From: Flavobacterium sp. | GTDB taxonomy: Bacteria > Bacteroidota > Bacteroidia > Flavobacteriales > Flavobacteriaceae | Direction of reading: 5' to 3' | NCBI RefSeq assembly: GCF_031422135.1 | Contig: NZ_JANOQD010000014.1 | Location: 12,969 to 76,968, forward strand | DNA: 64,000 nucleotides | Shown here: in pieces, positions 1,302-28,229 of the stretch | How the letters are laid out: every line of letters begins with the position of its first letter | Position numbering within the stretch: the stretch's first letter is position 1 | Notes under the pieces: generated by a model | What the model was told of the DNA's origin: nothing | Database searches by the model: none | What the model saw: the letters and a program-made list of their open reading frames with translations, nothing else | Program-made: the position numbers and the translations under genes

Positions 1302-1309
1302 CCTCAAAG

Positions 1310-2212: not shown

Positions 2213-2244
2213 CTTTACGCTCTTTACGGTTAAATCCTAAAATT

Positions 2245-2868: not shown

Positions 2869-3488
2869 ACCAAATAACTAACTTCTGGAATTACTTCAAA
2901 CAAAACAACTTTGTTTTTCTATTACTAAACGAAATCCCAAACGACGAACTAAAAATTCATTTTGATAAATTAATTGCATTATTACACAAGTATAACAAAG
3001 ATTTAGATTTAATCATAAAAAACAAAAGCAATGGAGCTGAACTAATCATTACTGCAAGTGGAAATCCCTATCTTTTCAAAGAAGTTGAATTAATATTACA
3101 TTATGCTCCAGTTGTAGAACGTTGGAAAATAATACCTTTTTTACAACCCGAAACAAATCTTTCTAAATACCAACAGGGTATAGATAAACCAATAGAAAAC
3201 TATGGAATTTCTTTAAAAATAAGCGAAATGTATTTCGAACCAATCAAAATTAAAAACAAACCTTTAGAAATAGGAATTAGAGTGTATATCAAAAACCATA
3301 TAGTTTACAAAGAGAACCCAAGATTAAGAGAAACTGTTTACATTCACCTGGAACACTTGCTAGGAGAAAAATGTTTTGCAAATGATATTAGCTTGATTGA
3401 TATTACTCAAATTCCAAGCAATTATAAAGAATTGAGATTTATTGAACTTTACAAATTAGGAGCTTATATTGAAAAAATTATAAATTAG
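2865..3488 (+). CDS. Conserved hypothetical protein
   Basis: 207-aa ORF overlapping the ATPase stop (ATGA); ELIITASGN...AP...W pattern. Confidence 0.7.
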   Translation: MNQITNFWNYFKQNNFVFLLLNEIPNDELKIHFDKLIALLHKYNKDLDLIIKNKSNGAELIITASGNPYLFKEVELILHYAPVVERWKIIPFLQPETNLSKYQQGIDKPIENYGISLKISEMYFEPIKIKNKPLEIGIRVYIKNHIVYKENPRLRETVYIHLEHLLGEKCFANDISLIDITQIPSNYKELRFIELYKLGAYIEKIIN

Positions 3489-3734
3489 CTTTCGTTAAAA
3501 AATATATTTTTTAGCCAAAAATTTATTGTGGTAAACGAGAGTAAATTTTGCTTATATCAATGAAATTAAAGTGATATTTTGATAAATTCACCGTCGTTTG
3601 CAATATATCCTGTTTGCGTTTTACTGTACATTGTGTAGTAAAACGCAAACAGGATATTCTTAATTTGATGAGTTTTGAAAAACGAATAATTACCAAGAGT
3701 AAATTACTTACTTTTATAAAAAATAAATTTATAA

Positions 3735-6602: not shown

Positions 6603-6726
6603 AAATTTAAATTAATCAAAAATAGATTCAATAAAATTAGTTACAGTTTAAGTTGAAAATCAATCAGAAAAATAAAAATAATCCAAAGGCATAGCTGTCT
6701 TGGCTAAAGCATAATAATTTACATTA

Positions 6727-9700: not shown

Positions 9701-9966
9701 ATGGAAATTATTCAGCACTTTCTAATCCAGACATATTTCAGGTTTTTGGTAAAGATGACATCAAAGCCAATATAAAAGAAATTATTTATAATGCAATGAC
9801 ATCAAGATTAAGAGCAATAGACCATTTCCATATTTTATGGCCATTCCCTGGTAATGTAATAAAACTTTTGGATGACAATGAAGTTGTAGATGATTTTGAG
9901 AGTTTATTTCAAAGCTTTGAGATTTTTTTAAATATGTCAATGTTTGATTTGAAAACAAATAGCTAA
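6727..9966 (+). CDS. PD-(D/E)xK nuclease + STAND ATPase with long helical C-terminus (Avs-like antiphage candidate)
   Basis: N-terminal NAFIGYSYQ...KFDDI...FQIK; Walker A GKPGVGKS; Walker B VIIDGLDH; sensor IILSRP. Confidence 0.72.
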   Translation: MKNAFIGYSYQEQVTSLMLTKMDVERSIIQIEIEATVEHKFDDIKLNTEEAEYYFQIKDFDNISLNDLIVSENEISIARKVHKLSSSGTNVIFFKNIEITPNCMVLDIDAYKLKNIYIVSLNRLAIDQKIEELYKTDHLRKYIIDQFFSECLDIRKLLIKKSELPVLNVFKTYLIEPTVNLTIETLEIENILHIEGKPGVGKSHLVVNLENQYSNNIVYRFWVSNQDNERNERLQYNNFVLDFSKKLFNNLKPYTEIEIISKIKELEKTVIIDGLDHVENYNSKDLEAYIEFIDKLKESCKVIILSRPLQRELNWKKQLLGNWNQEQTKKVLNELYHIEEYTNIEKIYKISDGYPILVRYISEQYKLKGSVPDFQTFDTIDKYYEKLIDGQKGKLALSLFLCVRSYIMQSEIELFLESINSSFVIEFIKEHPYLFELRLNRISLFHDSFITYLRKINTNYKAIASNVNSIVYSSILIGNKRFLSRFRYFDFSIVDKKNVVKKYSSITEFRILMNGVIDFEAIQDFYSQIRETMPELSANDLEINDYYELSLILNMVYRDHLSTLNDFYFTYCKALLFNGFTIEDITSNRYLFGMMYYIETNDGSLILNLNSDSHYDTSSFYYDLQNDANEEISFFEKHRKPLLTSKIKDLLKDKSNWEYRKIITYIIEDLFIHDLSRKNFEDLYNSINHYVNGDEYKANSILENFIVDFGIEDYQARWILKEAYENLLALGYISDKNDYLNLTLKEYILNNKDVGSFNMRVEILNYIRLSLHHNKKIDLASISLFWTKYYQRKDHTLYSLYAALPIFEKKGCIEMYDSLSLIYKIQDVSEKGYRGLLADYILEKTPEVIEKILEYFHPSNLSISWFLLPSEYINVLPDLVYNLEKGTKIKYHRTSRKIPYDEIENLLDSNRLEQFRNDLTFYRYSIDIEEKNPAIKKLKSLKIPYQTYKDQNYSSKESSALSRLDQGILDDKNKEMILVKKLKSYEVAAFSDGNYSALSNPDIFQVFGKDDIKANIKEIIYNAMTSRLRAIDHFHILWPFPGNVIKLLDDNEVVDDFESLFQSFEIFLNMSMFDLKTNS

Positions 9967-10147: not shown

Positions 10148-10948
10148 ATGGCAAAAAGCACCTATATTTCAGAAAACACAACACAAAATCAAATAGATTT
10201 TATGTTAATGCTTGATGATAATGAGTTAGACATCTTTACTTTAGAGGAAATCAAATCAATTGCATCAAGAGAATTTGAAAACATAAACGAGATAGTAGAA
10301 AATCTAGTACATAAAAAACTACTATCACGTATAGAACGAGGTAAATATTGTAGATACAATTTCAGGGACGAAAACGTAATTGGCTGCAAATTAACCGAAG
10401 ATTCCGCAATCGCTTATTGGTCCGCATTAAACAAACACGGTCTTACGGAACAATTTCCAAATTCTATTTTTATACAAACCACAAAAAGAAAATCAGACAA
10501 AAGTGTTTTTGGTGTTTTCTATAAATTCATTCAAATTTCAAAATCAAAAATAGTTGGAATAGAAAAATTAGGATTTGGAAACCACAGCTACCAAATGACC
10601 GATGTTGAAAAAACCATTATTGATTGTTTTGATTTACCACAATATTCCGGTGGTTATGCCGAATTAATTCGGGCATTCAATCAAGCAAACCTCAACAGTG
10701 AGAAAATGATTGCGTATTGTAAAGCCACAAAAAACATTGCTATTACAAAACGAATAGGATATTTGGCTGAATTACTAAATAAAAAAGGGATGAAATCATT
10801 TATAAACTTCGCATTAAAAGAAGTCAACGAAAAATACAATCTCTTTGACCCATTTGGTATAGAAGAAGGCGAATTTGTAAACAAATGGCGATTGAGATTA
10901 AATATAAGCAGCGAAGAAATTTTAAACATCTGTAACAAGCAATATTAA
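10148..10948 (+). CDS. abiEi: Type IV TA antitoxin / transcriptional regulator, AbiEi family
   Basis: wHTH with LSRIERGKY; IAYWSALNKHGLTEQ; TDVEKTIIDCFDLPQYSGG; coupled to the nucleotidyltransferase toxin gene. Confidence 0.88.
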   Translation: MAKSTYISENTTQNQIDFMLMLDDNELDIFTLEEIKSIASREFENINEIVENLVHKKLLSRIERGKYCRYNFRDENVIGCKLTEDSAIAYWSALNKHGLTEQFPNSIFIQTTKRKSDKSVFGVFYKFIQISKSKIVGIEKLGFGNHSYQMTDVEKTIIDCFDLPQYSGGYAELIRAFNQANLNSEKMIAYCKATKNIAITKRIGYLAELLNKKGMKSFINFALKEVNEKYNLFDPFGIEEGEFVNKWRLRLNISSEEILNICNKQY

Positions 10949-11805
10949 TGATTTTACAAAAAGAAATAGCCACCATTTCCGAACAACTAGGCGTATCGAA
11001 ATCAGTTATTGATAAAGATTGGATGTTGGGGCACTTTATAGCAGCAATATTCAACGAACCGGAACTAAAGGAAACATTAATTTTCAAAGGAGGAACTTGT
11101 TTGAAGAAATGTTGGTTTGAAGAATATAGATTTTCAGAAGATTTGGATTTTACTTCAAAGTCACAGGAATTTGAATTTACACAGAATCATTTAAAATTTA
11201 TCACAAAACATATTGAAGATAATACTGAAGTAAAAACACACATTGTTTCATTAAAACTATTACGATTTCAAGACAGACTAACAGGATATGAAGCTATAAT
11301 TAAGTTTTGGGGTGCAGACCATCCAAAAAATATAATGCCTACAACTCCAGACCGATGGCAGACAAAAATTAAAATAGAAATAATTCTCTATGAAGAAATG
11401 ATTTTTGAAGTTACAGAACAAGCAGTTAGCCACCCCTATTCTGACAACCTAGCATTAGTAAACGCAATACCTTGTTACAAAATCGAAGAAGTTTTGGCCG
11501 AAAAAATTAGAGCCTTAATCCAACGTTCTTATACAGCGCCTCGAGATTACTATGACATTTGGTACTTATCGAATAATTTCCCGGATTTAAACTGGATAGT
11601 GATTGTTGAAGCTTTTTACAAGAAAATGAAATTCAAGAATATTGAATTCACTGGAATTGACCAATTAATCAATCCAAAAAGTGATAAAGCTTTAAAAGGA
11701 GCGTGGAAAAACAGTTTGGGTCATCAAATTCAACCTGATAAATTACCCGAATATGAAGTAGTCAGAGAAAACCTTTTACTATTATTTGAGAGTATTTTTA
11801 AATAA
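10948..11805 (+). CDS. abiEii: AbiEii/AbiGii nucleotidyltransferase toxin
   Basis: LIFKGGTCLKKC...YRFSEDLDF; EEVLAEKIRAL...RDYYDIWYL. Confidence 0.92.
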   Translation: MILQKEIATISEQLGVSKSVIDKDWMLGHFIAAIFNEPELKETLIFKGGTCLKKCWFEEYRFSEDLDFTSKSQEFEFTQNHLKFITKHIEDNTEVKTHIVSLKLLRFQDRLTGYEAIIKFWGADHPKNIMPTTPDRWQTKIKIEIILYEEMIFEVTEQAVSHPYSDNLALVNAIPCYKIEEVLAEKIRALIQRSYTAPRDYYDIWYLSNNFPDLNWIVIVEAFYKKMKFKNIEFTGIDQLINPKSDKALKGAWKNSLGHQIQPDKLPEYEVVRENLLLLFESIFK

Positions 11806-11813
11806 TTTTTAAT

Positions 11814-13961
11814 ATGATATTAGTAGCTATATACATAAAAGAACATAAGTTTTTATTTGATAATCAACCTCAAATATTAAATTTTGGAGGTAGGTATTTT
11901 TATGACTTTGAATTCATTACTGATAATGAAATAACCATTTACAGGAAAAAAAATGAAAAATACATAGACAATTTTTACTCAAATGAAATTATTGCAATAT
12001 CTGGAATAGTTGGAGCAAATGGTGTGGGTAAAACAACTCTATTAAAAATAATCCATAAAAGTTATCAAGAAGATACACCTGTAATTTTTGTATACGAGAA
12101 ATTAACTGATGAAGGTATAGAATATTATATTGACAATAGAATTGGTATTATAAATGAAAATGGAAGTATTATTGAGGAATCTAAACCTATTGTTAAATTC
12201 TTTGAAAACATTGAGTACAATAAATTTGATTTCAGTTCATATACCACACTTTACTATTCACCTATTTACGACAAAAGCATTTCAGAATTTTATTCAATTT
12301 TAAACCTTGAAACTAAACATTCTGAAAAAACATTGGAGGAAATATATAGTGACAGTATATTAAAAGAAGTGATCTTTTTAAATAGTAAAGTGAGTGATAA
12401 AATTAAAATAATCTATCCAGATTTTCCAAATTATGATAACATAATTATAAAACCTAAAAAACTTCACAAAAGAGATTTTACTAAGGTTTATATAGATTCA
12501 AATTTGGGAAATCCAAATAAAGGCGAAACATTAAAACATACTATTGAAAGGGATTTAAGTGTTAAAAATTTTCCAAATCCGGTAAACCTTTTAAATAGTT
12601 ATTTATCAATATTAAAAAGTGGAAATGTGACGGATGCTTTAAAGGATATTTGGGATTTACCACAATACAAAAATGATAATGAGCAAAAATCTCATTTAAT
12701 CCACAACTCAAATAACTTCATAAAGAATATAGAAATAAGTATTTTATCATATCTTCTTCTAAATGATACTTTTGCAATAACTGATTTATCGGGTTCGTTT
12801 GATTTTGAAAAAATTTTAAAATCAAAAAGTTTTGAAGAAACCTTAAATTATATATTGGCAAAGTATATAGTCCAAACGGATAAAGGATTTTATAATAATC
12901 CAGAAGAAATTAAGATTGATGAGTATGAAAAACTAATCCAAAAATGTGATACTCTATACAATAAATTTACAGTTTTGAGCGGACTAGATGCTAAAATTAT
13001 TAAGGAGAAAATTACTATTGATATTAATGGTATCAAAGCAATAAAAGATTTTTATGATTTGATTAATAAAAATCAACACTTAATCCAGAATAATGAAGAA
13101 TATTCATACTTGAATCTTAATGTTAAAAATCAAGATACACAAGAAATACTTTCTGAAACAATTAAAGCATATACAAGGGTTAAAACATATTTTTCAAACA
13201 TCCCAATCGCAACAATTGATTTTATTGAAATTGAAGCTGATAAGAAATTATCCTTCGGAGAAAAATCGCTTTTAAACTTGTATTCAACTTTATATGAATT
13301 TACATTAGGAAAAAATCATACAAGAGAAAGTGAAAATTATTTATTGATTCTTGATGAAGCTGATTTAGGTTATCATCCACTATGGAAACGAAAATACATT
13401 GATGCTTTAAATAGAACACTTCCAGAAATATTTAATACTCTAAATGCTAAAGTTTTTGATAACATTAAAAAGAAAAAAGTAAATTCTGAACAGAAAAAAC
13501 CAAAAGTTCAAATAATTTTCACAACTCACGACCCTTTGACGCTATCTGATTTACCAAATAGTTCAATTGTTTTTCTAAAAAAAGTTAACCTTTTTAGTAA
13601 AGTATTAAAAATAGATGATGCCGAAAGACCTACAAAAACTTTCGGAGCCAACATCAGTAATTTACTTTCAGATTCATTTTTCATTAATGATGGTTTAATA
13701 GGTGATTTTGTTAAAGATAAGATTGAGAAAGTCATAATTGAGCTCAATAAATTACTTGATTTAAAAAACAATAATGTATATATCTATATAACAGAAGATA
13801 AAAAAATATTAATCAAGCAAATAATTGAAATAATTGATGAACCTATCATTAAAATGAAATTGATAGATATGTATAATACAATTTTTGAGGTTTCAATAGA
13901 AAATGAGATCAATGATTTGGAGGAAAGATTAAAATATTTAAGAAATCTAAAAAGTAATTAA
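11814..13961 (+). CDS. ABC/AAA_21-type ATPase, Septu PtuA-like (copy 1)
   Basis: Walker A GANGVGKT; signature LSFGE; Walker B/D-loop LILDEADLGYHP; H-loop TTHDPLTLSD; C-terminal TFGANI..LL. Confidence 0.85.
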   Translation: MILVAIYIKEHKFLFDNQPQILNFGGRYFYDFEFITDNEITIYRKKNEKYIDNFYSNEIIAISGIVGANGVGKTTLLKIIHKSYQEDTPVIFVYEKLTDEGIEYYIDNRIGIINENGSIIEESKPIVKFFENIEYNKFDFSSYTTLYYSPIYDKSISEFYSILNLETKHSEKTLEEIYSDSILKEVIFLNSKVSDKIKIIYPDFPNYDNIIIKPKKLHKRDFTKVYIDSNLGNPNKGETLKHTIERDLSVKNFPNPVNLLNSYLSILKSGNVTDALKDIWDLPQYKNDNEQKSHLIHNSNNFIKNIEISILSYLLLNDTFAITDLSGSFDFEKILKSKSFEETLNYILAKYIVQTDKGFYNNPEEIKIDEYEKLIQKCDTLYNKFTVLSGLDAKIIKEKITIDINGIKAIKDFYDLINKNQHLIQNNEEYSYLNLNVKNQDTQEILSETIKAYTRVKTYFSNIPIATIDFIEIEADKKLSFGEKSLLNLYSTLYEFTLGKNHTRESENYLLILDEADLGYHPLWKRKYIDALNRTLPEIFNTLNAKVFDNIKKKKVNSEQKKPKVQIIFTTHDPLTLSDLPNSSIVFLKKVNLFSKVLKIDDAERPTKTFGANISNLLSDSFFINDGLIGDFVKDKIEKVIIELNKLLDLKNNNVYIYITEDKKILIKQIIEIIDEPIIKMKLIDMYNTIFEVSIENEINDLEERLKYLRNLKSN

Positions 13962-13962
13962 A

Positions 13963-15123
13963 ATGATTAGCATAAGAGAATGTATATCAGAATCAGAATT
14001 AATTTCTGTACGAAAAAAACATATAGATTTTGTATCTTTTGAGGTTGAAAAGAGAATTGATTTTTATATCAATCTATTTGAATATTTGTCTTATTTACAA
14101 TTACACCCAAAAACTAGAACGGAAACAATAAAAAGCAAAGTAAACAAAATAATTCATCATTCTCAATATGAACCATTTATTAAAATTATTTTAATCAATG
14201 AGAAAAAATTTGATTATAGTAATCTTAAAAGAATAATCAAATACAAACCTGGTGCTGGGAATTTAACTATTGTAATTAATAGACTAAAAAAGCTAAAGAA
14301 AATTAGTAAATCAATTTTAGAAATAGACTTTAGCTATGGTAGTTTAATAAAAAGAAGATATTATGAATCCAGAAAACTCTTTTTCGCTCCGATAGACTTT
14401 TTACTAAAAAAAATATTTGACTATGAAAATTGGTTTTTAAATCTTGAACCTAATGGAGTTTGGGGACCATATCAATTAACTGAAAAACTAGGATTAAAAG
14501 TATGTTCATATTGTAATCGACAATATACTTTTAGTCTTTCAAAGGGTAAAAATAAAATTACAAGACCAGAATTGGATCATTTTTTACCGAAGAGTGGAAA
14601 TCCTCTATTGGCACTAAGTTTTTTTAATTTAATTCCTTCGTGTACAATTTGTAACAGAGATTGTAAAGGTAAAATTAATTTTAATTATCAAACTCATTTT
14701 TCTCCTTATGAACAAAATCCAAAACACGAATTAATTAAGTATGATTATTATCCAAAAACATATTTAGGTTCTATTGGTGAAACTGAAGAGTTTAGAATAT
14801 TTGTAAAAAATGACGGAGCGAAGCTTGACCCAGTATTGAAAGCAAAAATAGATGGTAATACTAAAGTTTTTGAATTAAATAAAATTATTAATGAACATAA
14901 AGATATAGTTCAGGAAATAATAAAAAAAAGACATATCTCAAATGATAACTACATAGATACATTGCAAAAAACATTCCCAGAAGCTAAACTTACACTCGAA
15001 GAAGCTTATAGGTTAGCTTATGGTAATTTTTATGGAGAAAAAGATTTTAATAAAAGACCTTTAGCTAAATTGACTAAAGACATAGCAGTTTCAATAGGTT
15101 CATTAAAAAAATATTCGAAATAA
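13963..15123 (+). CDS. HNH endonuclease, Septu PtuB-like, with N-terminal extension
   Basis: CSYC...ELDHFLPKSGNPLLALSFFNLIPSCTICN (zinc-binding HNH). Confidence 0.85.
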   Translation: MISIRECISESELISVRKKHIDFVSFEVEKRIDFYINLFEYLSYLQLHPKTRTETIKSKVNKIIHHSQYEPFIKIILINEKKFDYSNLKRIIKYKPGAGNLTIVINRLKKLKKISKSILEIDFSYGSLIKRRYYESRKLFFAPIDFLLKKIFDYENWFLNLEPNGVWGPYQLTEKLGLKVCSYCNRQYTFSLSKGKNKITRPELDHFLPKSGNPLLALSFFNLIPSCTICNRDCKGKINFNYQTHFSPYEQNPKHELIKYDYYPKTYLGSIGETEEFRIFVKNDGAKLDPVLKAKIDGNTKVFELNKIINEHKDIVQEIIKKRHISNDNYIDTLQKTFPEAKLTLEEAYRLAYGNFYGEKDFNKRPLAKLTKDIAVSIGSLKKYSK

Positions 15124-15125
15124 TT

Positions 15126-17126
15126 ATGAGTTTCCAAGTAATAGCAATAAAACCGCTTAAAGGCTGTAATAAAAAATATTTAAAACTATTGAATCCGGAT
15201 TGTACATATTATCTATACAGAGAGTTTACCATAAATGAGAATGATGATGCAATAGCTCTGGAAAAGAAAATTCCTGAAGAATTATACAATGTTGAGAGCT
15301 TAAATAATGAAAAAATAAAAATTAGTATTTCTGCAATATCTGGAAAAAATGGTTCTGGAAAGAGCACTTTAATTGAACTTTTATTTTTGGCAATCAACAA
15401 CTTTTCCGTTAAATTTAATAAGAAAAACCAAAAAGCTGACCTTACTTATGTAAATGATATTAAAGTAGAATTCTATTTTAAAACATACTCACGACAAAAG
15501 AATGAAGATGTTAGTAAATATTATAAGATTAAAGTATATGACAATGAGGTAACAATTCATCGATACAAAAAAAGTAAAAACGAATATGTGCTAAATTCAG
15601 TGCCAATTTATGAGTATAAATATAAACTTCAAGATTTTTTCTACACAGTAACAATTAACCATTCTCATTATGCATATAATACCGAAGATTTAGGTGACTG
15701 GTTAAATGGATTATTTCATAAAAATGACGCCTATCAAACTCCATTAGTCTTAAATCCTATGAGAACTAAAGGTGATTTCAAAATTGGCACAGAAAATCAT
15801 CTAGTAAAATCTAGGTTAATAGCTAATTTAGTAAAACCTACAGCTAAATTTAATTTCAAAAAACTAACAGATAATCTTGAGGCAATTGAACTTGACATTT
15901 CATTAAACGATACTAAAAGAGATAAAATTATTTATGAATTACCAACGGATGATCCACAAATTAACGAAAAAATAAAACTTAAAGACCTTAGTTTTAATGA
16001 GGATTTAATTTTTAAAAAAATCAATAAATATTATAAATTTTCTAATGATGATAATGATAAAATAAAGTTAAGAATAGCTTTCGATTATTTAAAATACAAA
16101 TTGGTTAATATTTGTGTAACCTATTCAGATTATGGTTTATATTTTGATAAAAAAAAGAAAAAATTTAATGAAGAATTATTAGATGAATATTTTAAAGAGC
16201 TTTTTATAAATGATGAAAGCCACATAACATTTAAGTTAAAACAAACACTAAATTATATCAGATTTAGCAAAAATAATATTGAAATTAAAGAGCAAAGAGT
16301 TTCACTTAAAACAATATCAGATTTTATTTCAAGAATTAAAGAAAATAAAACATATAATAAAATTAATACAATAGAATTAATTCCACCTCCATTTTTTAAT
16401 ACGGATATAATTTTAAATTCAGATAAAAATGAAAAAATAGAATTCAAAACATTGAGCTCTGGAGAAAAGCAAAAAATTTATTCAATAAGTTCAATTCTTT
16501 ATCATTTAAGTAATTTAGATTCCGTTAAAAATACTCGAACAAAAACCGCCTATACTAATGTCAATATAGTTCTAGAAGAGATTGAGCTATACTTCCATCC
16601 CGAAATGCAACGGAATTTTATAAATGATATTTTAGATAGTATTTCTGGAATAGAGCTTTATAAAATCAAAGCAATCAATTTTTGTTTTGTTAGTCATTCA
16701 CCATTTATACTTTCAGATATTCCAAAAGAAAATATTATGTTTTTAGAAAATATAGATAATAAAGCGGTACAAATTTCAGATGATAAATCAACATTTGGGG
16801 CTAATATACACGATTTGCTAAAAGATGGATTCTTTATGAAAAAGGGTTCAATTGGAGAATTTGCAAAAAATAGGATTACAAAAACTATTCAATGGCTAAA
16901 TTTAATCCGTGAAGAGAATGAAAAATCTATTAAAAATAATTTTGAATTGCTATTAAAAGAAAAAGAATATCATAAAAATATTATTGAAATTATTGACGAG
17001 CCAATAATAAAAACAAAATTATTAGAAATGTATTCGGAAATTTTCGGAAATGATGAACGCAAAAAGCATCTTGAAAATGAGATTGAAAGATTAGAGAATG
17101 AATTGAAAGTATTAAAAAATAGATAA
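15126..17126 (+). CDS. ABC/AAA_21-type ATPase, Septu PtuA-like (copy 2)
   Basis: Walker A GKNGSGKS; signature LSSGE; Walker B IVLEEIELYFHP; H-loop SHSPFILSD; C-terminal TFGANIHDLL. Confidence 0.85.
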   Translation: MSFQVIAIKPLKGCNKKYLKLLNPDCTYYLYREFTINENDDAIALEKKIPEELYNVESLNNEKIKISISAISGKNGSGKSTLIELLFLAINNFSVKFNKKNQKADLTYVNDIKVEFYFKTYSRQKNEDVSKYYKIKVYDNEVTIHRYKKSKNEYVLNSVPIYEYKYKLQDFFYTVTINHSHYAYNTEDLGDWLNGLFHKNDAYQTPLVLNPMRTKGDFKIGTENHLVKSRLIANLVKPTAKFNFKKLTDNLEAIELDISLNDTKRDKIIYELPTDDPQINEKIKLKDLSFNEDLIFKKINKYYKFSNDDNDKIKLRIAFDYLKYKLVNICVTYSDYGLYFDKKKKKFNEELLDEYFKELFINDESHITFKLKQTLNYIRFSKNNIEIKEQRVSLKTISDFISRIKENKTYNKINTIELIPPPFFNTDIILNSDKNEKIEFKTLSSGEKQKIYSISSILYHLSNLDSVKNTRTKTAYTNVNIVLEEIELYFHPEMQRNFINDILDSISGIELYKIKAINFCFVSHSPFILSDIPKENIMFLENIDNKAVQISDDKSTFGANIHDLLKDGFFMKKGSIGEFAKNRITKTIQWLNLIREENEKSIKNNFELLLKEKEYHKNIIEIIDEPIIKTKLLEMYSEIFGNDERKKHLENEIERLENELKVLKNR

Positions 17127-17129
17127 ACA

Positions 17130-18470
17130 TTGAGCAATCCCATAAACACCAATTTTAATTTCATTAAAATTCTAAATGAAGAGAAAACATACAAGTTGTT
17201 ATTTCCCGAAAGGGAAATAGGTCTTGCTATTGTTTTGATTTATGAGAAAATTAATGATGGTGTTTTTGAAGATGAAAAATTTACTGAAAATGATCTACAC
17301 GAAGCTTTTGAAAATATCTATAAAACAAAGGAACGTTATCCAAAAGAGGTTTATAGCAGTCACATTATGGACTTGCAGGAATATTTTTTAGATTACAACC
17401 AGGAAACCCAAAAGTATTTTTTCAAAGACTATGCTTCTAAATTTTGTAAACACGCTAAAGAAACTCTTATAGGTGCTTTTAATCCAACACGAATCCAAGA
17501 GATTTGTTCATTTCTTTCAAATTCATTATTAGAATCAGAGGATTCAACAGATAAACTTAAATTTTGGCTTAAAGAAACTTTTAAAAAATTTGAACCTGAT
17601 TTAAGAGAACAAATCGATTTTTTAGACCGACAAATTACCGAGTCGATTGAATTACTTAAAAAAGGAACCGATTTTACCAATCAAAATTTCCTTAATATAC
17701 TAGTAGCAACGGATTTTAGTATGAACAAAGCCCAAAAACACGTTGCGGAATTACGTTCGGCTTATTCTGAGACCAAAACAATAAGAGGTTTATTAGAACA
17801 AAAACAAAATCAAGATAATGAAATAAATGAGTTGATTTCGGAAGTGTATTCTTTTGTAAAATACATTAATGATCGATTGAGTTCAATTGATCGCAAATTA
17901 GATAGAATTCAACCTAAAATTAGACAACTATTTTCAACATTAAGCAAACCTTTATTAAGTTCAAAGATTGAAAAGTTCATTCATTTGTTATTGGATAAAA
18001 GTACTTTAGAATCTAACAGTGGCAATAAATCAATAGTGTTTCCACACAATATTATTTCACCACAAATTCATATTCCAACGCCACATTTTACAATAATTGA
18101 CAAAGACCGAGAATTATTTCCTTCCAAACCAAAAGAAAGAAAACAATATATTCAGAACGAAAAAGTAATTGAGGAAAACATTAAGAAAGCTCAAGATAAA
18201 ATAAACGAAATAGACACTATTAGAAATTGGGAAAAATATATTTTATCAGAAATAGAACTAAAAGGGAGTATCAAATTATCAGAAGTCTTCTTTAAAATTA
18301 TTGAAGAAAGTAAAAGCAGTCAAATTGCTGTGAGCGTAACTTTTAACATTATTAAATATGTTTACAGTAATAAAGACAAATATAAATTGGAGATTGATAA
18401 AGAATTAGAAACGAATAGCGAATTTAAAAACATTGCATTATGGAAAATGAAAATAATAAAATTAGTTTAA
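17130..18470 (+). CDS. jetA: Wadjet JetA/MksF-like kleisin subunit (TTG start)
   Basis: 446-aa helical protein, first of a four-gene block before MksE-like, SMC and Toprim genes; assigned mainly by position. Confidence 0.65.
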   Translation: MSNPINTNFNFIKILNEEKTYKLLFPEREIGLAIVLIYEKINDGVFEDEKFTENDLHEAFENIYKTKERYPKEVYSSHIMDLQEYFLDYNQETQKYFFKDYASKFCKHAKETLIGAFNPTRIQEICSFLSNSLLESEDSTDKLKFWLKETFKKFEPDLREQIDFLDRQITESIELLKKGTDFTNQNFLNILVATDFSMNKAQKHVAELRSAYSETKTIRGLLEQKQNQDNEINELISEVYSFVKYINDRLSSIDRKLDRIQPKIRQLFSTLSKPLLSSKIEKFIHLLLDKSTLESNSGNKSIVFPHNIISPQIHIPTPHFTIIDKDRELFPSKPKERKQYIQNEKVIEENIKKAQDKINEIDTIRNWEKYILSEIELKGSIKLSEVFFKIIEESKSSQIAVSVTFNIIKYVYSNKDKYKLEIDKELETNSEFKNIALWKMKIIKLV

Positions 18471-19087
18471 GTAGTTTCTTGTACAGTGATAATTCAGAGG
18501 ATTTATTTGCTTCAATTGATTATTTATTAAAAGATGGTGTACACTTTCAAAAAGAAGGAAAACAAATAAATCAATATAACTTTATTTCACAAAATGAAGA
18601 AAGTCTTAAACTGTATTATAACACCTTTTTCAAAGTTGATTTAGTTAAAGGAGGCGAAGACAATGCAAGCTATTATTATTTAGATTTTATAAATAATGAT
18701 CGAGGAAATATCTCTGATAAACACAGATATATGCTCAAAAGTGAGTATGTAATTATTGGATTTCTAATTTATAAAATTATGTTTATTGACCGAGAATTTG
18801 ATTTGAATTCTGTTCAAAAATTAAAAGAAAAAATCCGGCTTGAATGTGAAGATTACAAACAAGGTATTTATACATTAATTGCTAAATCAAAGAATACAAC
18901 TCCTGGTAATTACAATGATGATATAATAGATAAAACAATTCAATCGGCTCTTGAAGAATTTAAAAAAATTGGTTGGATAACATTAGATAAAGACGAGTTT
19001 CATACATTACCTGCATTCGACAGATTGCTAAAAGTATATGAAGAGTACATTATAAATATAGAGGAAACACTAAACGAACTGAAATGA
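18440..19087 (+). CDS. jetB: Wadjet JetB/MksE-like KITE subunit
   Basis: 215 aa; C-terminal wHTH (ALEEFKKIGWI...LPAFDRL); lies directly before the SMC-like gene. Confidence 0.72.
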   Translation: MENENNKISLSSFLYSDNSEDLFASIDYLLKDGVHFQKEGKQINQYNFISQNEESLKLYYNTFFKVDLVKGGEDNASYYYLDFINNDRGNISDKHRYMLKSEYVIIGFLIYKIMFIDREFDLNSVQKLKEKIRLECEDYKQGIYTLIAKSKNTTPGNYNDDIIDKTIQSALEEFKKIGWITLDKDEFHTLPAFDRLLKVYEEYIINIEETLNELK

Positions 19088-22000
19088 AAGACTATCCACT
19101 AATTAAAAGACTATCAACTTTAGGAATAGTACACCATCAGGGATTTGATTATGATTTTAATCCATTCAGAACTGATTTTGTTGGCGAAGGCGGTGCTGGT
19201 AAAAGTATGATTTCTGATATTTTACAATTAATTTGTGTTGGTACTTCGGCTTTTCATTCTCCTACAAAAGGTACAAGTACTAGAGAACCTAAAACTATGG
19301 TTTTAAGAACTGATGGTAATGGAACCGATATGGGTTATGCTTTTATAAATGTTGAGGTAGAGAAAAATAAATTTATAGTTATTGGTATTTATTTAGAAAG
19401 TGCTGGTACTTCATATATGTTTATTATTCAAGAGGGTAATAATTTTGATGACGACACTCAATTGATGCCTTTTGAAACTGTTTTAGGGTATTCCGATTTT
19501 CTCAAAAACAATCAAATATTACCAATTCAAAATTTGAAGGAACACATCAGTAATACTTTACAACTAACTTGTGAATCTTGGCATAAGACTTCAAATTATC
19601 ATAAAATTCTTTTCAAAAATGAAATATTGCCTATTGATTTGTCAATCAGTAATAAAACGTTAGACAATTATGCCAAAATTATTCAAGCATTTTCTAGAGA
19701 ATCTTTGGATATGAATAAGAGTGAAAAATTACAAAGTTTTTTATTTGGTGAGGAAAAAGAAAAGGAATTACTTGAAAAATTTAATCAAACCGTTAAAGAA
19801 CTGAATGGTGACAACAAAGAATTTGATAAAAACTTAAACGAAATAGAATTACTCACCGATAAGCAAAACGCGTTAAGTGAATTGTTGAAATTGAGAATTG
19901 AAAAAGATAAAAACGAGAAGATTTTCTTGTTAGCATCTTTTAACAATTATTCAAAAGAAGTTACTGATTCAGAAAATGAAATAAGAGAGAAAATTAATCT
20001 TTATGAAAATAGTTCCAAAATACTCATCCAATTAAAAACAAATGTCCAAGAAAAAATAATTTCAACAAATGAAGAAATTAAAATAATAGATCCAAAATGG
20101 GAAACTGCATTTAAAGAAAAAAATAAATGGGAAGAATGTGAAAACAAATTAAAAAAGTTTTTCTCTTGGTTACAGGATTTTAATTGTTCTGAAAAAGAAA
20201 TTTTAAAAGAAAAATATAATAAGCACCATCAAAATAAACTTCAAATAACACAATTAAGAGAATTGACTGAAAAGTTAAAATCAAAAAACATTTTGACTTT
20301 TTTTACCAATGAAAATTTAAAGGGTAAAAATGCACTTGTACAAGCTAATTCAAAAACAGAAGTTTACAAAAAAGAGCTAGAAATTAAAAACAAATTAAAA
20401 GCTTTAAATAATATTGAAGATAAAAAATCATTAGCACATTGGGCTTTAAATCAAACTAAAAAATTAGATTTATTCCAGGAAAGTATAATTCATAAATACC
20501 ACAATGAAAATATAAAAGTAGATGCTCCATCAGATGTTTTATTAAAATATATTCCAGAACCAAATCAATTAATAGAAAATCTTAAAATATCAAATAAAAA
20601 TGACAAAGGTTTTTGGATTGATCTAAATGGTTTAATGGAACACGTAACTTTAATTAAATCACCAATTTTTGACAAGGAAGATAGAGAAGAAATTAAGGAA
20701 TATTTTCAGAAACAAACTTGTACGATAGAAGAAGACATTTCAAATTTAGAGAGAAAATTATCAAACATTGAATTGATTATAGAAGTTTTAGAACAATTAG
20801 AAAATCCTGATGAATATGTATTTGCTTTTAATTCAAATATAGGACTAGATGAACAACTTGAAAATCACGAAATGTATGATGTTTCAAATATCATTTTTGA
20901 TGACTATTTTGATGCTTTTTCTAGAGAAAAAGAAATCAATGAACAGCTTACAAATGCAAAAACAAATTTCAAAAAATTAGAAGACGAAAAGCGAAAATTG
21001 GACAATCTACGCATTAATTTAGAGCGTGAATTAGAATCATTTTTAACACCAATAATTATTGATGAAATTGATGATTACAAAAGTAAATATAATTTTGCAT
21101 CAACTAAAAATCTTGATTTAGAGAGCTTAAATAAAGAATTAAGCGATGCTGAAGATTATTACATAGAATTGAAAAAAGCATATAATACTCAAATAAGTAA
21201 TAACAATCAAACAGCTTCTCTAAAGGAAATAGAATTAAAAATTTTAAAAATTACACATAAAAAAAATGAGATTTATAGTCAAAATCCTAATCTATTTACA
21301 GAAGAAATAGTAATGGATATTTATGATGATAATGAAATTAATGAATTAGAAAAAAAATCTATAGATGCTAATAATGATTATATTTCTAACTACAATTTTG
21401 TAGTCTATACTTTTCTTAAACAGAAGATTAATCATTATAAAGACACTGGCGATTTCAGTCCTTTATGCAGAGAAATTTTACCTAAAGAAATATTTGATGA
21501 AAAAGATTTATTAGAAGAAGATATAATTGAAAACATTTCCAATTACTTACGCAATATAAATATTAAAAATAGAAAGCTAAATAGCCGAAAGCTTCAAAAA
21601 TTAAGTGAGATTATAGACGATGTTTCAAATGAAGTAAGTAGTCAATTAATGGATATAAGAATAATAAGTAATTTTTTGAATTCAGAAGAAAAAAAAATAA
21701 CTGGCGGTCACAAGGTCGATTTAGATGTAATATACGATAATGTTTTCAAAAAAGAATGGATGAATAATTTCACTGATGAGATTAATAAAGATATTCAATA
21801 CGGTATGGATGAATCATTATTTGAAACTCTTAAAACATTTTCCACAGAATTAGAAAGTTTTCCAACGTTGGAAGAAAAATTAAAAGAAGCATTTTATCGA
21901 ACTGGTGGAACAAGAGCAAACAAACTAGAAGTTAGGGACTTACTGAATCCAAAATCATATTATGGGTTGAAGTTTTCAATTAAATCAGCACAAGGGAACA

Positions 22001-22323
22001 AAACTGCTGGTAGCACAAGTCAAACATATTCAGCAATAGCACTTTTATGTATGGCAAAGTTATCTTTAATCGATAAAACTTCAAAATCCAAAATAAGAAA
22101 AGGAATTCGTTATATGGCTATTGATGAGGCAGAAGGTCTTGGAAGTAATTTTGATATGCTATATAATATTGCAAAAGCAAATGATTACCAAATTTTATCT
22201 TTATCGATAAATCCAAATAAAATTGATGCAGAAAATCAAAATATTTATTTGTTGCACAATAGTTTAGAAGATGAAAATATAAACTACACTCCTGTGCCAA
22301 TTTTTGGATCATCAAACAATTAA
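19084..22323 (+). CDS. jetC: Wadjet JetC/MksB SMC-like ATPase
   Basis: N-terminal Walker A GEGGAGKS, long coiled coil, signature-like GSTSQ, Walker B MAIDEA. Confidence 0.8.
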   Translation: MKDYPLIKRLSTLGIVHHQGFDYDFNPFRTDFVGEGGAGKSMISDILQLICVGTSAFHSPTKGTSTREPKTMVLRTDGNGTDMGYAFINVEVEKNKFIVIGIYLESAGTSYMFIIQEGNNFDDDTQLMPFETVLGYSDFLKNNQILPIQNLKEHISNTLQLTCESWHKTSNYHKILFKNEILPIDLSISNKTLDNYAKIIQAFSRESLDMNKSEKLQSFLFGEEKEKELLEKFNQTVKELNGDNKEFDKNLNEIELLTDKQNALSELLKLRIEKDKNEKIFLLASFNNYSKEVTDSENEIREKINLYENSSKILIQLKTNVQEKIISTNEEIKIIDPKWETAFKEKNKWEECENKLKKFFSWLQDFNCSEKEILKEKYNKHHQNKLQITQLRELTEKLKSKNILTFFTNENLKGKNALVQANSKTEVYKKELEIKNKLKALNNIEDKKSLAHWALNQTKKLDLFQESIIHKYHNENIKVDAPSDVLLKYIPEPNQLIENLKISNKNDKGFWIDLNGLMEHVTLIKSPIFDKEDREEIKEYFQKQTCTIEEDISNLERKLSNIELIIEVLEQLENPDEYVFAFNSNIGLDEQLENHEMYDVSNIIFDDYFDAFSREKEINEQLTNAKTNFKKLEDEKRKLDNLRINLERELESFLTPIIIDEIDDYKSKYNFASTKNLDLESLNKELSDAEDYYIELKKAYNTQISNNNQTASLKEIELKILKITHKKNEIYSQNPNLFTEEIVMDIYDDNEINELEKKSIDANNDYISNYNFVVYTFLKQKINHYKDTGDFSPLCREILPKEIFDEKDLLEEDIIENISNYLRNINIKNRKLNSRKLQKLSEIIDDVSNEVSSQLMDIRIISNFLNSEEKKITGGHKVDLDVIYDNVFKKEWMNNFTDEINKDIQYGMDESLFETLKTFSTELESFPTLEEKLKEAFYRTGGTRANKLEVRDLLNPKSYYGLKFSIKSAQGNKTAGSTSQTYSAIALLCMAKLSLIDKTSKSKIRKGIRYMAIDEAEGLGSNFDMLYNIAKANDYQILSLSINPNKIDAENQNIYLLHNSLEDENINYTPVPIFGSSNN

Positions 22324-22327
22324 AAGT

Positions 22328-23278
22328 ATGAAAAAAATTGAATGGAAACATCTAAAAGGATTGCATCAGCTTTATAAATCAAAACAAACAAAGTTAAAAA
22401 TAACTAACAATGATTTTATTAATCAGGTCATTTTAAAACAAAAGAAACTAATAAAATTTAAGGTTGGAAATCATTCTATTATCGAAGCATCATCAAGATT
22501 TAAGGAGTATTACGAGCAGGAATTTTTAGAAACCTATGAATACTACAATAATTTCTTTGAGAAGTCGGGAATAGAAAACGATGCTAAAAAATCTTTTGAT
22601 GATGAAGATTTAAAAGCATTAATGTTTGTTTTTTATAACAAAGAGGAATTAAAAAAAAATGTAACAACAGAGAAAAAATTATCTGCTTTAATTTATAAAA
22701 ATCAAAATTCTAAATACTTATCTAATAAATTAAGTGTTAAAAATGCAGTTTTAAGAATATTAGAACTTGATGAATTTCCAGAAAAAGACCCCAAAAATAA
22801 TCAATGGAGATTTGTAGTTGATTGCCTTAATCCAAAAGTTATTGTGCTTTGTGAGAATCTTGATTGTCTAAAAGTTCCGTTAGAATATAAAAATAATAAT
22901 ATCGAATTATGGTATGTTGGTGGTAATAATACCACACCATTAGAAGACATTTCTCAAGATAAATTAAAACTTCCAATATATTATTTTTGTGATTGGGATT
23001 ATAACGGATTACTGATATATTCAAATGTCAAACAAATATTTAGATCCAAAGGAATTGAAGTCAAAATAATTCTACCACAAACACAAGAAATCGCAATCGA
23101 AGTTGGTGTCAAACATCATAAAAGTAAATGGAATGATAATGAATTCTCAAATTTGAATAAGAATGATTTTTCATTACAAGAAATCGAATTTATCAATCAA
23201 TTAATTTCGGAAAATAAATGGATTGAAGAAGAATCTTTAGATTTAATCAAACTACTGAAAAACGATAATATCATTTAA
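22328..23278 (+). CDS. jetD: Wadjet JetD/MksG Toprim nuclease
   Basis: Toprim motifs VLCENL, YVGGNN and YFCDWDYNG (DxD); follows the SMC gene; ATG at 22328 preferred over the overlapping 22304 start. Confidence 0.8.
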   Translation: MKKIEWKHLKGLHQLYKSKQTKLKITNNDFINQVILKQKKLIKFKVGNHSIIEASSRFKEYYEQEFLETYEYYNNFFEKSGIENDAKKSFDDEDLKALMFVFYNKEELKKNVTTEKKLSALIYKNQNSKYLSNKLSVKNAVLRILELDEFPEKDPKNNQWRFVVDCLNPKVIVLCENLDCLKVPLEYKNNNIELWYVGGNNTTPLEDISQDKLKLPIYYFCDWDYNGLLIYSNVKQIFRSKGIEVKIILPQTQEIAIEVGVKHHKSKWNDNEFSNLNKNDFSLQEIEFINQLISENKWIEEESLDLIKLLKNDNII

Positions 23279-23453
23279 TTACCATTATCTCATTCATCTG
23301 CACAAAATCTTCGTTTAGTCCAAGTATTCCTAAACTCAAATCTTTGTTTGCTTCATTTCACTAATTACGTTTTCAATAGCAAGAATATCTTTTTCGTTCG
23401 GTGGTAAAAAGAAAGTTTTACATTTCATAAGGCACTCCTTTGCCAACGCTCCA

Positions 23454-24347
23454 AAAAAAATTACTGGCACAGTTTTTAGAAAAAACACGTACGCTTCGCA
23501 ACTTGCGCCAGTAATTTTTTTCCCCAAGCTGTGTTACATAATTGAGTATTATAGTTCATTACAAAGCGTTTATATTGTTTTTTTTGGTTTTTGTAACGAA
23601 GCTATAATATCATTTATGTAAAACAGCCGCCACACCCAACGCGCTTGCCAGTGGCTCTAGGACAGCTTTTTTAATTGCTTCCTCGCACCAGCCGGCAATA
23701 AAAAAAGCTGTCCTTCGCCACTGTCTTTAAGAACCTTCGCTATTTCATCGGAAACTTTACAGTTGTAATTACTTTCAAGAACGTTCACGGTAACTGTTTT
23801 TAGCAACTTTGTGTTTAAATCGGTAAGTATTTGCATTGCTTTTGTAAGTGTTGTAAATCGCTTATCAACTCTATTTCTAACATTAACGACATAGGAATAA
23901 GCAATTTACAACACCCACAAAACCAAGAGTAGCCAGCAAGAGTATCATTTTTTTATTTGCCATAAAATAAGAAGTCATTGCTTCAGCGGAAAAGTTGATG
24001 CCATACCGTTACTAATAATAAGCATTGCAAGCTTCAAGCATTATCTTTCTTTTAAGTCTATGGCATCAACTTTTCCACAAAAGCAATCAGAAACATCCCA
24101 GTCAGCAAATAAAAAATGATACACTTGCACGCGCTACTGCACTGTCGCACTAGGTATTATAATGCATTGTTTTTTGAAGATGCTTTCCATTTTCAGAACA
24201 ACATTCCAATTAAATTGAAACTTCACATTTCATAAGACGATTAGGCATCCTCAAAAATCAAATCCAAGAAAGAGTAGCAAATTCTTTGGCCGGATGAAAA
24301 GCATTTTTATTTTTTGATTTGGTTTTTTTATCCATCCAAAGAATTTG
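23454..24347. repeat. Array of six long imperfect inverted repeats
   Basis: Hairpins at 23454-23521 (15-bp perfect stem), 23528-23627, 23649-23723, 23840-23922, 23936-24128 (18-bp perfect inner stem) and 24278-24347 (12-bp perfect stem). Confidence 0.85.
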
Positions 24348-24771
24348 ATACCCTTTCCGAAGACGACCATCTTCCAAATCAATTCTCATTACTTCAGATT
24401 AAATCCGATTAAACAAGAACATTCCGATTGGATATTCAAAACAAAAAATAAAAAAAAAGAGAGCAAAGATAAGTTCCAGGTATTCAGAAAAAAAAGTTCA
24501 AGCCCTAAGGGTTTTAAAAAAAATCTCCACCCTTAACGGTTCGCATCAACATTCAATTCCGATTTCACGCTCATACTTCCGATGATGTATCGGGTAGTAT
24601 TTTTTTTAAAAAACTTTTTTATCTGAAACCTTCCGCTTGAACAGACGGCTTTCTTTTTTTCTTTTTTTCTTTTGAAAAATTTTATAGGTCGAGCGTAGCG
24701 AGGCACACCTACATTTCAAGAGAAAATCCGCGAAAAATTGAAAATCTAATCAATTTTTAAAGCCGAAAGTT

Positions 24772-25194
24772 ATGACCAATTTTATCATCAAAACTCACCG
24801 AGTTGGAACGATTTATTCAAAACCGCATTTATTCCTACTTAACAAAGGGATGAACAGCGGAAAGCCACAAAAAGAGCCATTTACTAACAGTTTTGTTATC
24901 ATTTTTCAAAACGAGGAGGACTGCGAAAGCCTTTTTTTCATTGCTTATAGTTTATGGCAAACAAAATTTTGGCACCAACATTTAGTTGGTTCGGTAATCC
25001 CATTTTTACGCCTTCCAGATTTCAAAAAACAATTCAATCCGCAAGCCAGTTTAATGATGGTGGAACACGAGCAGCACCAAAAAAATGTTGCAGCTCTCAA
25101 ACTTCTGGAAAAAAAAGAAAAACAGTACAAAGAGGATATGATGCTTATAAATGACATCCGTAGAGCCATTTTATATAGGTATTGCAGAAAATAA
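24772..25194 (+). CDS. DUF6943-like protein (weak resemblance to a type I R-M specificity subunit fragment)
   Basis: NKGMNSGKP...LVGSVIPFLRL followed by an amphipathic helix; family label from recall. Confidence 0.6.
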   Translation: MTNFIIKTHRVGTIYSKPHLFLLNKGMNSGKPQKEPFTNSFVIIFQNEEDCESLFFIAYSLWQTKFWHQHLVGSVIPFLRLPDFKKQFNPQASLMMVEHEQHQKNVAALKLLEKKEKQYKEDMMLINDIRRAILYRYCRK

Positions 25195-25484
25195 TCCAAA
25201 TTGTAAACTCAAATTCACTTAAATGAAGCTATTTATTTTGTACCAAACCGACAATTGGAAATCCAAAGCATCAACAGTATGTTTTGGCGTTTTCGACACT
25301 AGAGCCAAAGCTCTTGATAGCGCAAAATGGCAATAATTGTACACATATAATTCTGAAGTAGTGGTTTTAGAGGTTACTCTAAATCTATTTGAAGAAGTTT
25401 AATTTTAGACCATAAAAAAACCCATTCCTCACGGTTTGGGCTTCATTATTGTTTAATCCAAAGGTCACCACAACTAGAATTAAA

Positions 25485-27575: not shown

Positions 27576-27811
27576 AATGTGGATAAAATCCCAACTCCAT
27601 TTTAAACCATCGTAGATAAACACATCGTTAAATAACTAGTTCATTTTTTAGTATTCTTTACACTTTAAGTTATGTTGTATCAATTTAATTGTGTACTTTT
27701 ATGGTTCACAAGTTAATGGAAGTCCAAACGATATAAAAAGGGGGTAAATTCGGTTACCCAATTTAAAATATAATTGCAAAATACTAAAATATAGCGCATT
27801 AGGGATTAAGT

Positions 27812-27832
27812 TTCAATCCCTCATCGCCCACA
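27812..27832 (+). other. Putative attR: tRNA 3'-end remnant (tRNA-Val-like)
   Basis: TTCAATCCCTC-ATCGCCC-A-CA resembles a T-loop/T-stem, the 3' acceptor strand complementary to 5'-GGGCGAT and the discriminator base; no 5' half of a tRNA upstream. Confidence 0.55.
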
Positions 27833-27853
27833 AGTATTACTACAATTAGTTTC

Positions 27854-27887
27854 AAAACCCTATAAGTCATATGATTTATAGGGTTTT
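27854..27887. terminator. Near-perfect palindrome just beyond att (terminator-like or recombination-associated)
   Basis: AAAACCCTATAA-gtcatatgat-TTATAGGGTTTT. Confidence 0.55.
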
Positions 27888-28229
27888 TCTATTAAGTTTA
27901 TAATTAAATTTTAGGATCTGAACCAATTAATTAGGGATAATTACTGAGATAGTAGGTAAATACAATGGTTCTATGTTTGGTATCTATGGAAAAGTAAGTT
28001 ATCCCATAGTGACATAATGAAATTTAATTGGAAATATGGAGCTAAAAGTAATACTAGGAAACAACTGCCACTGATGTTATGGCAAAAAATTGAATTATAA
28101 ATAGTCGAATCTTTTAAATACTGCTTAGTAATCAGGGTTAAAATACTGTATAAAAACAGGTATTTTCCCCGAAATATAAAAAAGGAATAGTTTGATATTT
28201 GTATCAATAAATAATTAAACTATTTAACT

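Follow-up and report, generated by a model that had tools for sequence, protein, structure and literature searches.

A conserved hairpin module under minus-strand selection at the core/cargo border of Flavobacterium genomic islands

The window analyzed in this study, a stretch of 64,000 nucleotides (64 kb; GC content about 30%), is part of contig C14 of the Flavobacterium genome G000 and carries, at positions 23283-24711, a 1.4-kb non-coding module that is conserved in a family of integrative genomic islands from Flavobacterium. The module is dominated by an array of long hairpins and ends next to a gene of the DUF6943 family. Since it is the pairing and not the sequence that is kept, and for the minus strand only, the module works as a single-stranded minus-strand nucleic acid, either RNA or DNA. 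Our leading account, held tentatively, is that the resident island makes a structured minus-strand non-coding RNA from the array. In the following, G000 denotes the source genome, G0xx and G279 other genomes, L0xx fetched loci, and C14, C22, C61, C90, and C109 contigs of G000.

Seven long imperfect hairpins (H1-H7) are located within 23452-24361, and two further ones, H8 and H9, follow up to 24711. An inverted-repeat scan of the window identified arm pairs with 85-95% complementarity for H1 (23454-23471/23504-23521), H3 (23659-23678/23695-23714), H4 (23836-23865/23897-23926), both tiers of H5 (23936-23953/24111-24128 and 23977-24005/24059-24087), and H7 (24268-24300/24325-24357), and H2 and H6 were added from ViennaRNA folds. 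Most of the inverted repeats with arms of at least 18 nt and at least 85% complementarity were found in 23.45-24.36 kb, judged from the 25 longest of the 38 in the 64-kb scan. The minus strand of 23440-24360 (921 nt) folds at -321.3 kcal/mol (shuffled sequences: -212; z-score -13.3) and the plus strand at -261.8 kcal/mol (shuffled sequences: -176; z-score -12.8), which is the comparison with shuffled controls on both strands that a first-pass annotation of this DNA, made from the letters only, had proposed as a check. That annotation had described six hairpins in about 900 bp and had placed the limits of the array at 23454-24347. The hairpins proved real in both the repeat scan and the ViennaRNA folds, but there are seven of them, H6 (24165-24262) having been missed, and the structure runs on beyond the proposed right limit with H8 (24437-24680) and H9 (24685-24711).

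The leftmost hairpin H1 (23452-23523) is preceded by an A-tract and followed by a T-tract, and thus has the shape of a bidirectional intrinsic terminator, located at the cargo border; in five relatives it is swapped for an unrelated hairpin, likewise with A- and T-tracts. It is followed by H2 (23526-23629, 104 nt), the inner part of which is exchanged for an unrelated yet pairing replacement in about half of the homologues, and by H3 (23646-23728, 83 nt). The base of H4 (23832-23930, 99 nt) is marked by tandem G.U pairs that are conserved (GTGGGT/ACTTAC), and the inner stem of this hairpin occurs in several unrelated versions. The two-tier H5 (23934-24130) measures 197 nt, and both H6 and H7 (24264-24361) 98 nt. 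H8 is the longest and most conserved hairpin; one of its arms is rich in purines and the other, with which it pairs, in pyrimidines, and the insert at the apex varies. The small and variable H9 lies just upstream of the DUF6943 gene. The segments between the hairpins are unstructured, with z-scores near 0. The same applies to the conserved left-end segment (23283-23451; z-score about 0 on either strand) and to the linker between H3 and H4 (23729-23831; z-score about +1 on both strands), whose length is nevertheless kept: the stretch corresponding to 23640-23845 comprises 204-206 nt, mostly 206, in 33 of 36 homologues.

Selection of the structure on the minus strand, as the first-pass annotation had inferred from a strand-biased mismatch pattern, is well supported. 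Each hairpin copy was folded separately for both strands in 36 distinct homologous copies, and the minus strand was more stable for H1 to H7 in 34, 35, 36, 36, 36, 35, and 34 of these, respectively. The mean number of G.U pairs per hairpin ranged from 3.1 to 11.4 on the minus strand vs. 0.4 to 2.2 on the plus strand (4.2 vs. 0.4 for H3, 11.4 vs. 2.2 for H5). When A.C mismatches on the minus strand, i.e., positions that would be G.U on the plus strand, are taken as the counterpart, the minus-strand stems of H1-H7 contain 1076 G.U vs. 29 A.C in 224 hairpin sequences, which are related to each other, so that the counts are not independent; for H8, the numbers are 222 and 23. The window alone has 26 G.U vs. 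3 A.C in its minus-strand stems (binomial p = 1.5e-5), and its plus-strand fold contains 8 G.U. Overall, G.U pairs make up 12.6% of the minus-strand stem pairs. Random transitions in a palindrome would predict a ratio of 1:1, whereas the observed direction was the same in every hairpin and every lineage, which is why the inference of minus-strand selection was right.

Covariation among homologous regions, the second check that had been suggested, points in the same direction. In an alignment of 24 distinct copies of H7, 11 of 20 consensus pairs showed compensatory double changes, and 97.1% of the cells were paired, whereas shuffles reached 82.6% and alignments with slid partners 35-60%; double changes were seen in 71 cells vs. 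21.8 in the shuffles. For H8 (33 copies), 11 of 47 consensus pairs had double changes, 98.6% of the cells were paired vs. 93.4% after shuffling (maximum 94.4), and the double-change cells numbered 95 vs. 26. The inner stems of H2, H4, and H7 exist in several unrelated versions, all of which still pair. The hairpin as such is preserved, whereas its letters and its loop are not.

The array contains no open reading frame (ORF) of more than 63 aa, as had been noted at the outset. Small ORFs of 30, 59, and 63 aa were considered as genes and ruled out: among the 36 homologues, the 59-aa and 30-aa ORFs differ in frame, start, and length and are hence not genes. The view that the array consists neither of CRISPR (clustered regularly interspaced short palindromic repeats) nor of repetitive extragenic palindromic (REP) or tandem repeats also held, since only three weak two-copy direct repeats and no periodic family were present and copies occur solely within homologous modules. 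The hairpins had furthermore been regarded as mutually unrelated, which needs one correction: the motif AAGAGTA[GT]C is common to the base of H5, the base of H7, and the H4/H5 junction (23925-23944, 24270-24276). In one relative, an H5-like unit occupies the position of H7, G279 has extra tandem copies of the H5-to-H7 segment (corresponding to about 23912-24174 of the window), and units are also duplicated in L030. In view of the motif shared by hairpin bases, the hairpins may go back to ancient duplications of a single unit.

The gene-free region recurs in other Flavobacterium genomes at 68-92% identity. Of 61 relatives, 30 have the array, as do 85 of the 401 genomes sampled from the genus at a threshold of E ≤ 1e-30; genomes with two or three copies are frequent. 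It resides in chromosomes, with one to three copies per genome; G000 contains a second full copy on C90 and a partial copy on C61. In all 12 loci that were fetched with flanks the right-hand neighbors are constant, in the order DUF6943, a 37-aa ORF, two membrane peptides, DUF5675 (optional), a 251-aa protein, and a helix-turn-helix (HTH) gene. The left-hand neighbors vary and include Wadjet, metal efflux with a P-type ATPase, and other defense genes, so that the module sits at the core/cargo border between variable cargo and DUF6943. From left to right, the islands consist of an integrase, an RteC-like gene, an HTH_17 gene, a replication-type pair (o1310 and a DnaC-like ATPase), the cargo, and the module, followed by DUF6943, two small membrane proteins, the lysin-like DUF5675, the 251-aa protein, the small HTH gene, and a tRNA-like remnant. 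The far end of complete islands (C22 of G000; G020) comprises a tyrosine integrase, the RteC-like gene, HTH_17, o1310, the DnaC-like ATPase, and o2865. No integrase was found on C14, whereas the sister islands on C22 and C90 have one, and the island copy of the window may be immobile or served in trans. Separately, in L025 the integrase of a neighboring island is followed by a 190-aa ORF (14773-15345) with an HVH motif and no family match, which might encode a small HUH-type protein.

Homology among all copies of the module starts at exactly 23283 (CATTATCTCATTCA[GT]CTGCACAAAA), and about 30 different contexts are found to the left of this position. In other islands (G020, G023, G033), the first 85-330 nt are also found by themselves and in direct orientation across the cargo, with solitary left-end copies at L065:16207-16291, L067:7985-8073, and L066:6390-6621 and 16443-16769. 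As these solitary copies lie at the far side of the cargo, the cargo is bracketed by direct repeats, and 23283 resembles a junction, site-specific or hot-spot, at which cargo is exchanged. H8 also occurs in islands that lack H1-H7. H8 and DUF6943 are retained on C22 of G000 (67700-68390), where a GC-rich stretch of about 620 nt, C-rich on the plus strand and with only a weak folding signal (z-score about -2.2 on both strands), takes the place of H1-H7.

The DUF6943 gene (24772-25194, plus strand; Pfam PF22105, E = 3.7e-56) always adjoins the array and reads away from it, the minus strand being its template. The AlphaFold model of the protein (predicted local distance difference test score, pLDDT, 95.1) gave specificity subunits of type I restriction-modification systems as best Foldseek matches (7eew, 1ydx, 7vru, 1yf2), with probabilities of 0.82-0.99 and TM-scores of only 0.33-0.40. 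According to this model, DUF6943 looks like one target-recognition-like domain with a long helix, i.e., a "half-HsdS." A relationship to IS200/IS605-type TnpA, hinted at by a weak phmmer match (E about 0.7), was dropped, as the fold search points to HsdS-like proteins. No mention of DUF6943 was found in the literature. A search of the protein against a plasmid collection yielded one distant match and against a phage collection none, and eleven IMG/VR contigs contained distant relatives. At five of ten such distant loci (IMG/VR, 33-43% identity), the upstream 500-900 nt fold 40-90 kcal/mol better on the antisense strand, with 33-49 G.U pairs on that strand vs. 8-16 on the other. Together with C22, where H8 is kept without H1-H7, these loci suggest that the association of DUF6943 with an upstream structure on the antisense strand predates the present array.

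If the module acts as RNA, which we consider the best single account although it falls short of an even chance, the module would be transcribed leftward, away from DUF6943, to give a non-coding RNA of about 1.0-1.3 kb composed of long wobble-rich hairpins. This transcript would end at H1 and hence not run into the cargo, and the RNA would work with the neighboring conserved genes; its most plausible role would be that of a DUF6943 partner, bound or processed, or of a factor regulating the right-hand module. By a reading of the sequence, none of the hairpins but H1, which comes last in minus direction, has a U-tract after it on the minus strand, as expected if one transcription unit ends there. 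The stable one to three chromosomal copies per genome fit a function in the resident state, and RNA is the only single-stranded nucleic acid whose production by a resident chromosomal island is certain. We lean toward RNA over single-stranded DNA (ssDNA) partly since no source of ssDNA is visible. The conserved tandem G.U pairs and the G.U share were also counted for RNA.

Several observations weigh against such a transcript. No convincing minus-strand promoter that would include both arms of H8 was found, and no conserved promoter is present in the 70-110 nt to the right of H8. The sole exact minus-strand match to TAnnTTTG, the consensus of the Flavobacterium sigma-A -7 box (PMC9723704), lies inside H8; a transcript starting from it would lack the other arm of this hairpin, though the two arms covary. 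Read-through from the operon formed by the 251-aa protein gene (o251), DUF5675, and the two membrane-protein genes is unlikely, because an intrinsic terminator (25414-25441, minus strand) right after the small membrane-protein gene closes this operon before DUF6943. The loops are large, A-rich, and unconserved, and junctions or pseudoknots are lacking. Such a plain architecture differs from that of the functional large RNAs that are known and is closer to that of hairpin elements in ssDNA. A search of the 64 kb against Rfam 15 gave no match at gathering scores, and at E ≤ 5 just generic microRNA-precursor-like matches far below threshold were returned. The G.U bias, moreover, was dropped as a discriminator between RNA and DNA. 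The Frpo region upstream of ssb on the F plasmid, used as a control, shows 20 G.T vs. 1 A.C on the transferred strand and 11 vs. 3 on the other, and DNA energy parameters still favor the minus strand in 23-35 of 28-35 copies of the array hairpins, so that RNA and DNA cannot be told apart by the wobble bias.

These last two results also count for the strongest alternative, namely that the module is a folded minus-strand ssDNA element of the Frpo/ssi kind, formed on cell entry or during other exposure of ssDNA. Elements of this kind serve as ssDNA promoters and signals for priming within leading regions of the conjugative plasmids F and ColIb-P9 (Masai & Arai 1997, as cited in PMC11541004). H8 would then present a sigma-A promoter, with the -33 element in the stem, the -7 box in an internal loop, and the template arm continuing into DUF6943, which would thereby be expressed before the complementary strand is made, and H1-H7 would be priming or protection signals. 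Both DUF6943 and all 17 cargo ORFs at 1008-23278 have the minus strand as their template, an arrangement also found in plasmid leading regions (PMC11541004). The box in question, TATCTTTG at 24464-24471 on the minus strand, is located in an internal loop of the 3′ arm of the covarying H8, points to DUF6943 only when H8 is folded, and is the only exact TAnnTTTG on either strand of 23200-25300; none is found on the plus strand within 1.5 kb upstream of DUF6943. However, with about one match per kb per strand due to chance, a single one in 2 x 2.1 kb does not exceed expectation, the box is exact in just 17 of 33 copies, and a TTG 19-23 nt upstream of it is found in 18 of 33 copies and is absent at that spacing in the window. 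In nine homologues, the final G of the box has changed to A together with its pairing partner, which indicates that pairing, not promoter identity, is under constraint. The long simple hairpins with free loops and turnover of units resemble ssDNA (ssi) signals; yet H1-H7 have neither promoter boxes nor downstream genes. The island also encodes an RteC-like regulator, known from Bacteroides conjugative transposons. A transfer route is nevertheless not apparent, as G000 contains neither a PF03432 relaxase nor a PF07863 TraJ (other relaxase families were not searched), although it has array copies on three contigs and genes of the island module on at least six. TraJ was found in 13 of 85 array-bearing genomes vs. 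93 of 316 others (odds ratio 0.43, Fisher p = 0.008). No rolling-circle Rep and no mobilization gene were found among the conserved genes of the island, whose replication genes are of the DnaC-loader type (o1310, the neighbor of the DnaC-like ATPase, looks DnaD-like by eye only), and the array DNA matches no record in the plasmid and phage collections. The choice between non-coding RNA and folded ssDNA that the first-pass annotation had offered therefore stands, while its specific ssDNA readings, a single-strand origin or promoters used on entry into a new host, are weakened by the missing relaxase, TraJ, and Rep. In complete genomes, the orientation of the array relative to replication showed no consistent lagging-strand-template bias (about 5 of 16); the origin was assumed at base 1 and the result was given no weight. 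Taken together, an Frpo/ssi-like element is possible but doubtful. A more specific version, in which the array and DUF6943 form a device letting a transfer-gene-free Bacteroidota island establish from ssDNA, appears improbable: the island would enter via helper conjugation or transformation, the folded-only H8 promoter would drive a half-HsdS-like protein that redirects or blunts host type I restriction or modification, and H1-H7 would prime or shield the strand. If true, it would be the first case of an ssDNA-promoter system beyond Proteobacteria-type plasmids, and one located in non-conjugative islands.

Other explanations dispense with a product or with a single strand. The hairpins could act in cis as a transcriptional insulator that stops or destabilizes read-through at the core/cargo border. 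This would fit the position of the array exactly at that border in every island examined, the bidirectional-terminator shape of H1 and its replacement by another such hairpin in some relatives, and the variation in unit number by duplication (G279, L030). Cargo transcripts are plus-sense, though, whereas the selected folding is that of the minus strand, H2-H8 have no U-tracts, and eight hairpins with 20-77 pairs each in 1.3 kb of conserved sequence, 74-92% conserved between species with the unpaired linkers included, go far beyond the needs of termination, which makes an insulator an unlikely explanation. We regard as more improbable still that the hairpins are attC-like recombination sites which exist only in folded ssDNA and serve the exchange of cargo modules at the sharp junction. 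Hairpins of 70-105 nt, strand specificity, structure kept more than sequence, the roughly 30 left contexts at 23283, and the left-end direct repeats in G020, G023, and G033 would agree with such sites; but the junction lies 170 nt from the first hairpin inside an unstructured segment, H1-H8 follow one another in a fixed order in 36 copies without intervening cassettes, and there is no IntI-type integrase, nor any integrase at all on the contig of the window. Double-stranded DNA (dsDNA) palindromes or cruciforms bound by protein, e.g., operators of a dimeric DUF6943, or decayed functionless repeats, finally, have next to nothing left to recommend them. If modeled correctly as half of a specificity subunit, DUF6943 would dimerize and read symmetric DNA, and arm-to-arm covariation could also arise from co-evolving half-sites. 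A dsDNA function, however, predicts no strand asymmetry, and the observed G.U:A.C ratio of 37:1 largely refutes it; stems of 20-77 pairs with freely replaced sequence are unlike operators, copies are confined to homologous modules so that the hairpins are not dispersed repeats, and the presence in 85 genomes together with z = -13 excludes chance.

The surroundings of the module in the window agree with this island layout. The left-hand core at 1-3.5 kb consists of a 496-aa protein ending at 440 and, at 1008-3488, HTH_17, o1310, the DnaC/IstB-like ATPase, and o2865. From about 1 kb to 23.3 kb, every large ORF is on the plus strand, and 1-23278 contains a plus-strand defense island with two STAND/NB-ARC-like NTPases with TPR repeats (3735-9966), AbiEi/AbiEii (10148-11805), ABC/AAA_21 ATPases (11814-17126; a weak HNH-like match with E = 0.007 was below the cut-off), and a Wadjet-like JetABCD set (17130-23278; matches to MksE, MukB-N, and JetD_C). 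The other core/cargo border, between o2865 and the first cargo gene, carries a near-perfect palindrome (3605-3657, 26-nt arms, 92%). To the right of DUF6943, the two small membrane proteins, DUF5675, and the 251-aa protein are encoded on the minus strand, followed by the HTH gene (67 aa); the model of the 251-aa protein (pLDDT 62.5) was too poor for a structure search. At the right end of the island, a tRNA-like fragment consisting of T-arm and acceptor end (27794-27832) is probably the remnant of an attachment site; ARAGORN found no tRNA gene in the window. The fragment is followed by a terminator-like palindrome (27841-27900), and part of the 27794-27900 stretch also adjoins the integrase on C109. 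Beyond the fragment lies a chromosomal Mur ligase gene, and PorU/PorV type IX secretion genes are located at 33-38 kb.

The islands, which carry defense systems (here Wadjet, AbiE, and STAND NTPases) and genes for metal resistance from one Flavobacterium species to another, occur in about a fifth of the genus, with the array, tied to a protein family without literature, as their most conspicuous conserved non-coding part. If it acts as RNA, the few large non-coding RNAs described in bacteria are joined by a family of about 1 kb, and DUF6943 is likely to have a nucleoprotein function. In the case of an ssDNA element, the Frpo principle would reach into another phylum and into elements that lack conjugation genes. 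Which of the two applies is directly testable in genetically tractable Flavobacterium strains.

Compared with described systems, the array fails a defining feature of every family that could be tested. Its likeness to Frpo/ssi elements is one of features: both comprise long imperfect, G.T-rich hairpins on a mobile element, on the template strand of the adjacent genes, and may occur several times per region, and H8 has a promoter-like box. In contrast to these, the island and most hosts of the array are without relaxase/TraJ markers, neither an origin of transfer (oriT) nor a type IV secretion system is present in the island, the phylum and the promoter type are different, seven of the hairpins have no downstream gene, and promoter-like boxes are found in one of nine hairpins only, poorly conserved. 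Another compact gene-free block is the intergenic region of the Ff phages, which, like single-strand origins (sso), has several unrelated strand-specific hairpins that work only in ssDNA. The array differs from it in being two to three times longer and in belonging to an island without a visible rolling-circle Rep, phage morphogenesis genes, or ssDNA lifestyle. The attC arrays of integrons and clusters of attC sites lacking integron integrases (CALINs) likewise consist of hairpins of 60-140 nt in a region of variable cargo, with structure kept over sequence and one strand active; here, however, the hairpins stand back to back in the same order in 36 copies, with no cassettes or conserved ORF, the variability junction lies outside of them, and the integrases of the islands are of the Phage_int_SAM_5/Arm-DNA-bind_5 type and located at the far end, with no IntI. 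With the large RNAs ROOL, GOLLD, and OLE, the array shares the length of about 1 kb, the non-coding nature, strand-specific covariation, many G.U pairs, and the frequent location on mobile elements, and H8, with a long helix, an internal loop, and a promoter-like strand, recalls the principle of 6S/6S-Flavo RNA. Unlike these RNAs, the array is a simple string of hairpins without multi-way junctions, pseudoknots, conserved loops, or a match in Rfam. REP elements, bacterial interspersed mosaic elements (BIME), and miniature inverted-repeat transposable elements (MITE) do not apply either, as in G000 the array sequence recurs only as homologous modules on C90, C61, and C22. The literature likewise contained nothing relevant on Flavobacterium ssDNA promoters or island non-coding RNAs. 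The array matches no Rfam family, plasmid, phage, or paper, and the single-stranded RNA or DNA as which it works is of a kind not yet described. The present analysis newly contributes to this comparison that the array is negatively associated with conjugation genes and that its promoter box is weakly conserved, as well as the control with the F plasmid and the sharp junction at the border to the cargo.

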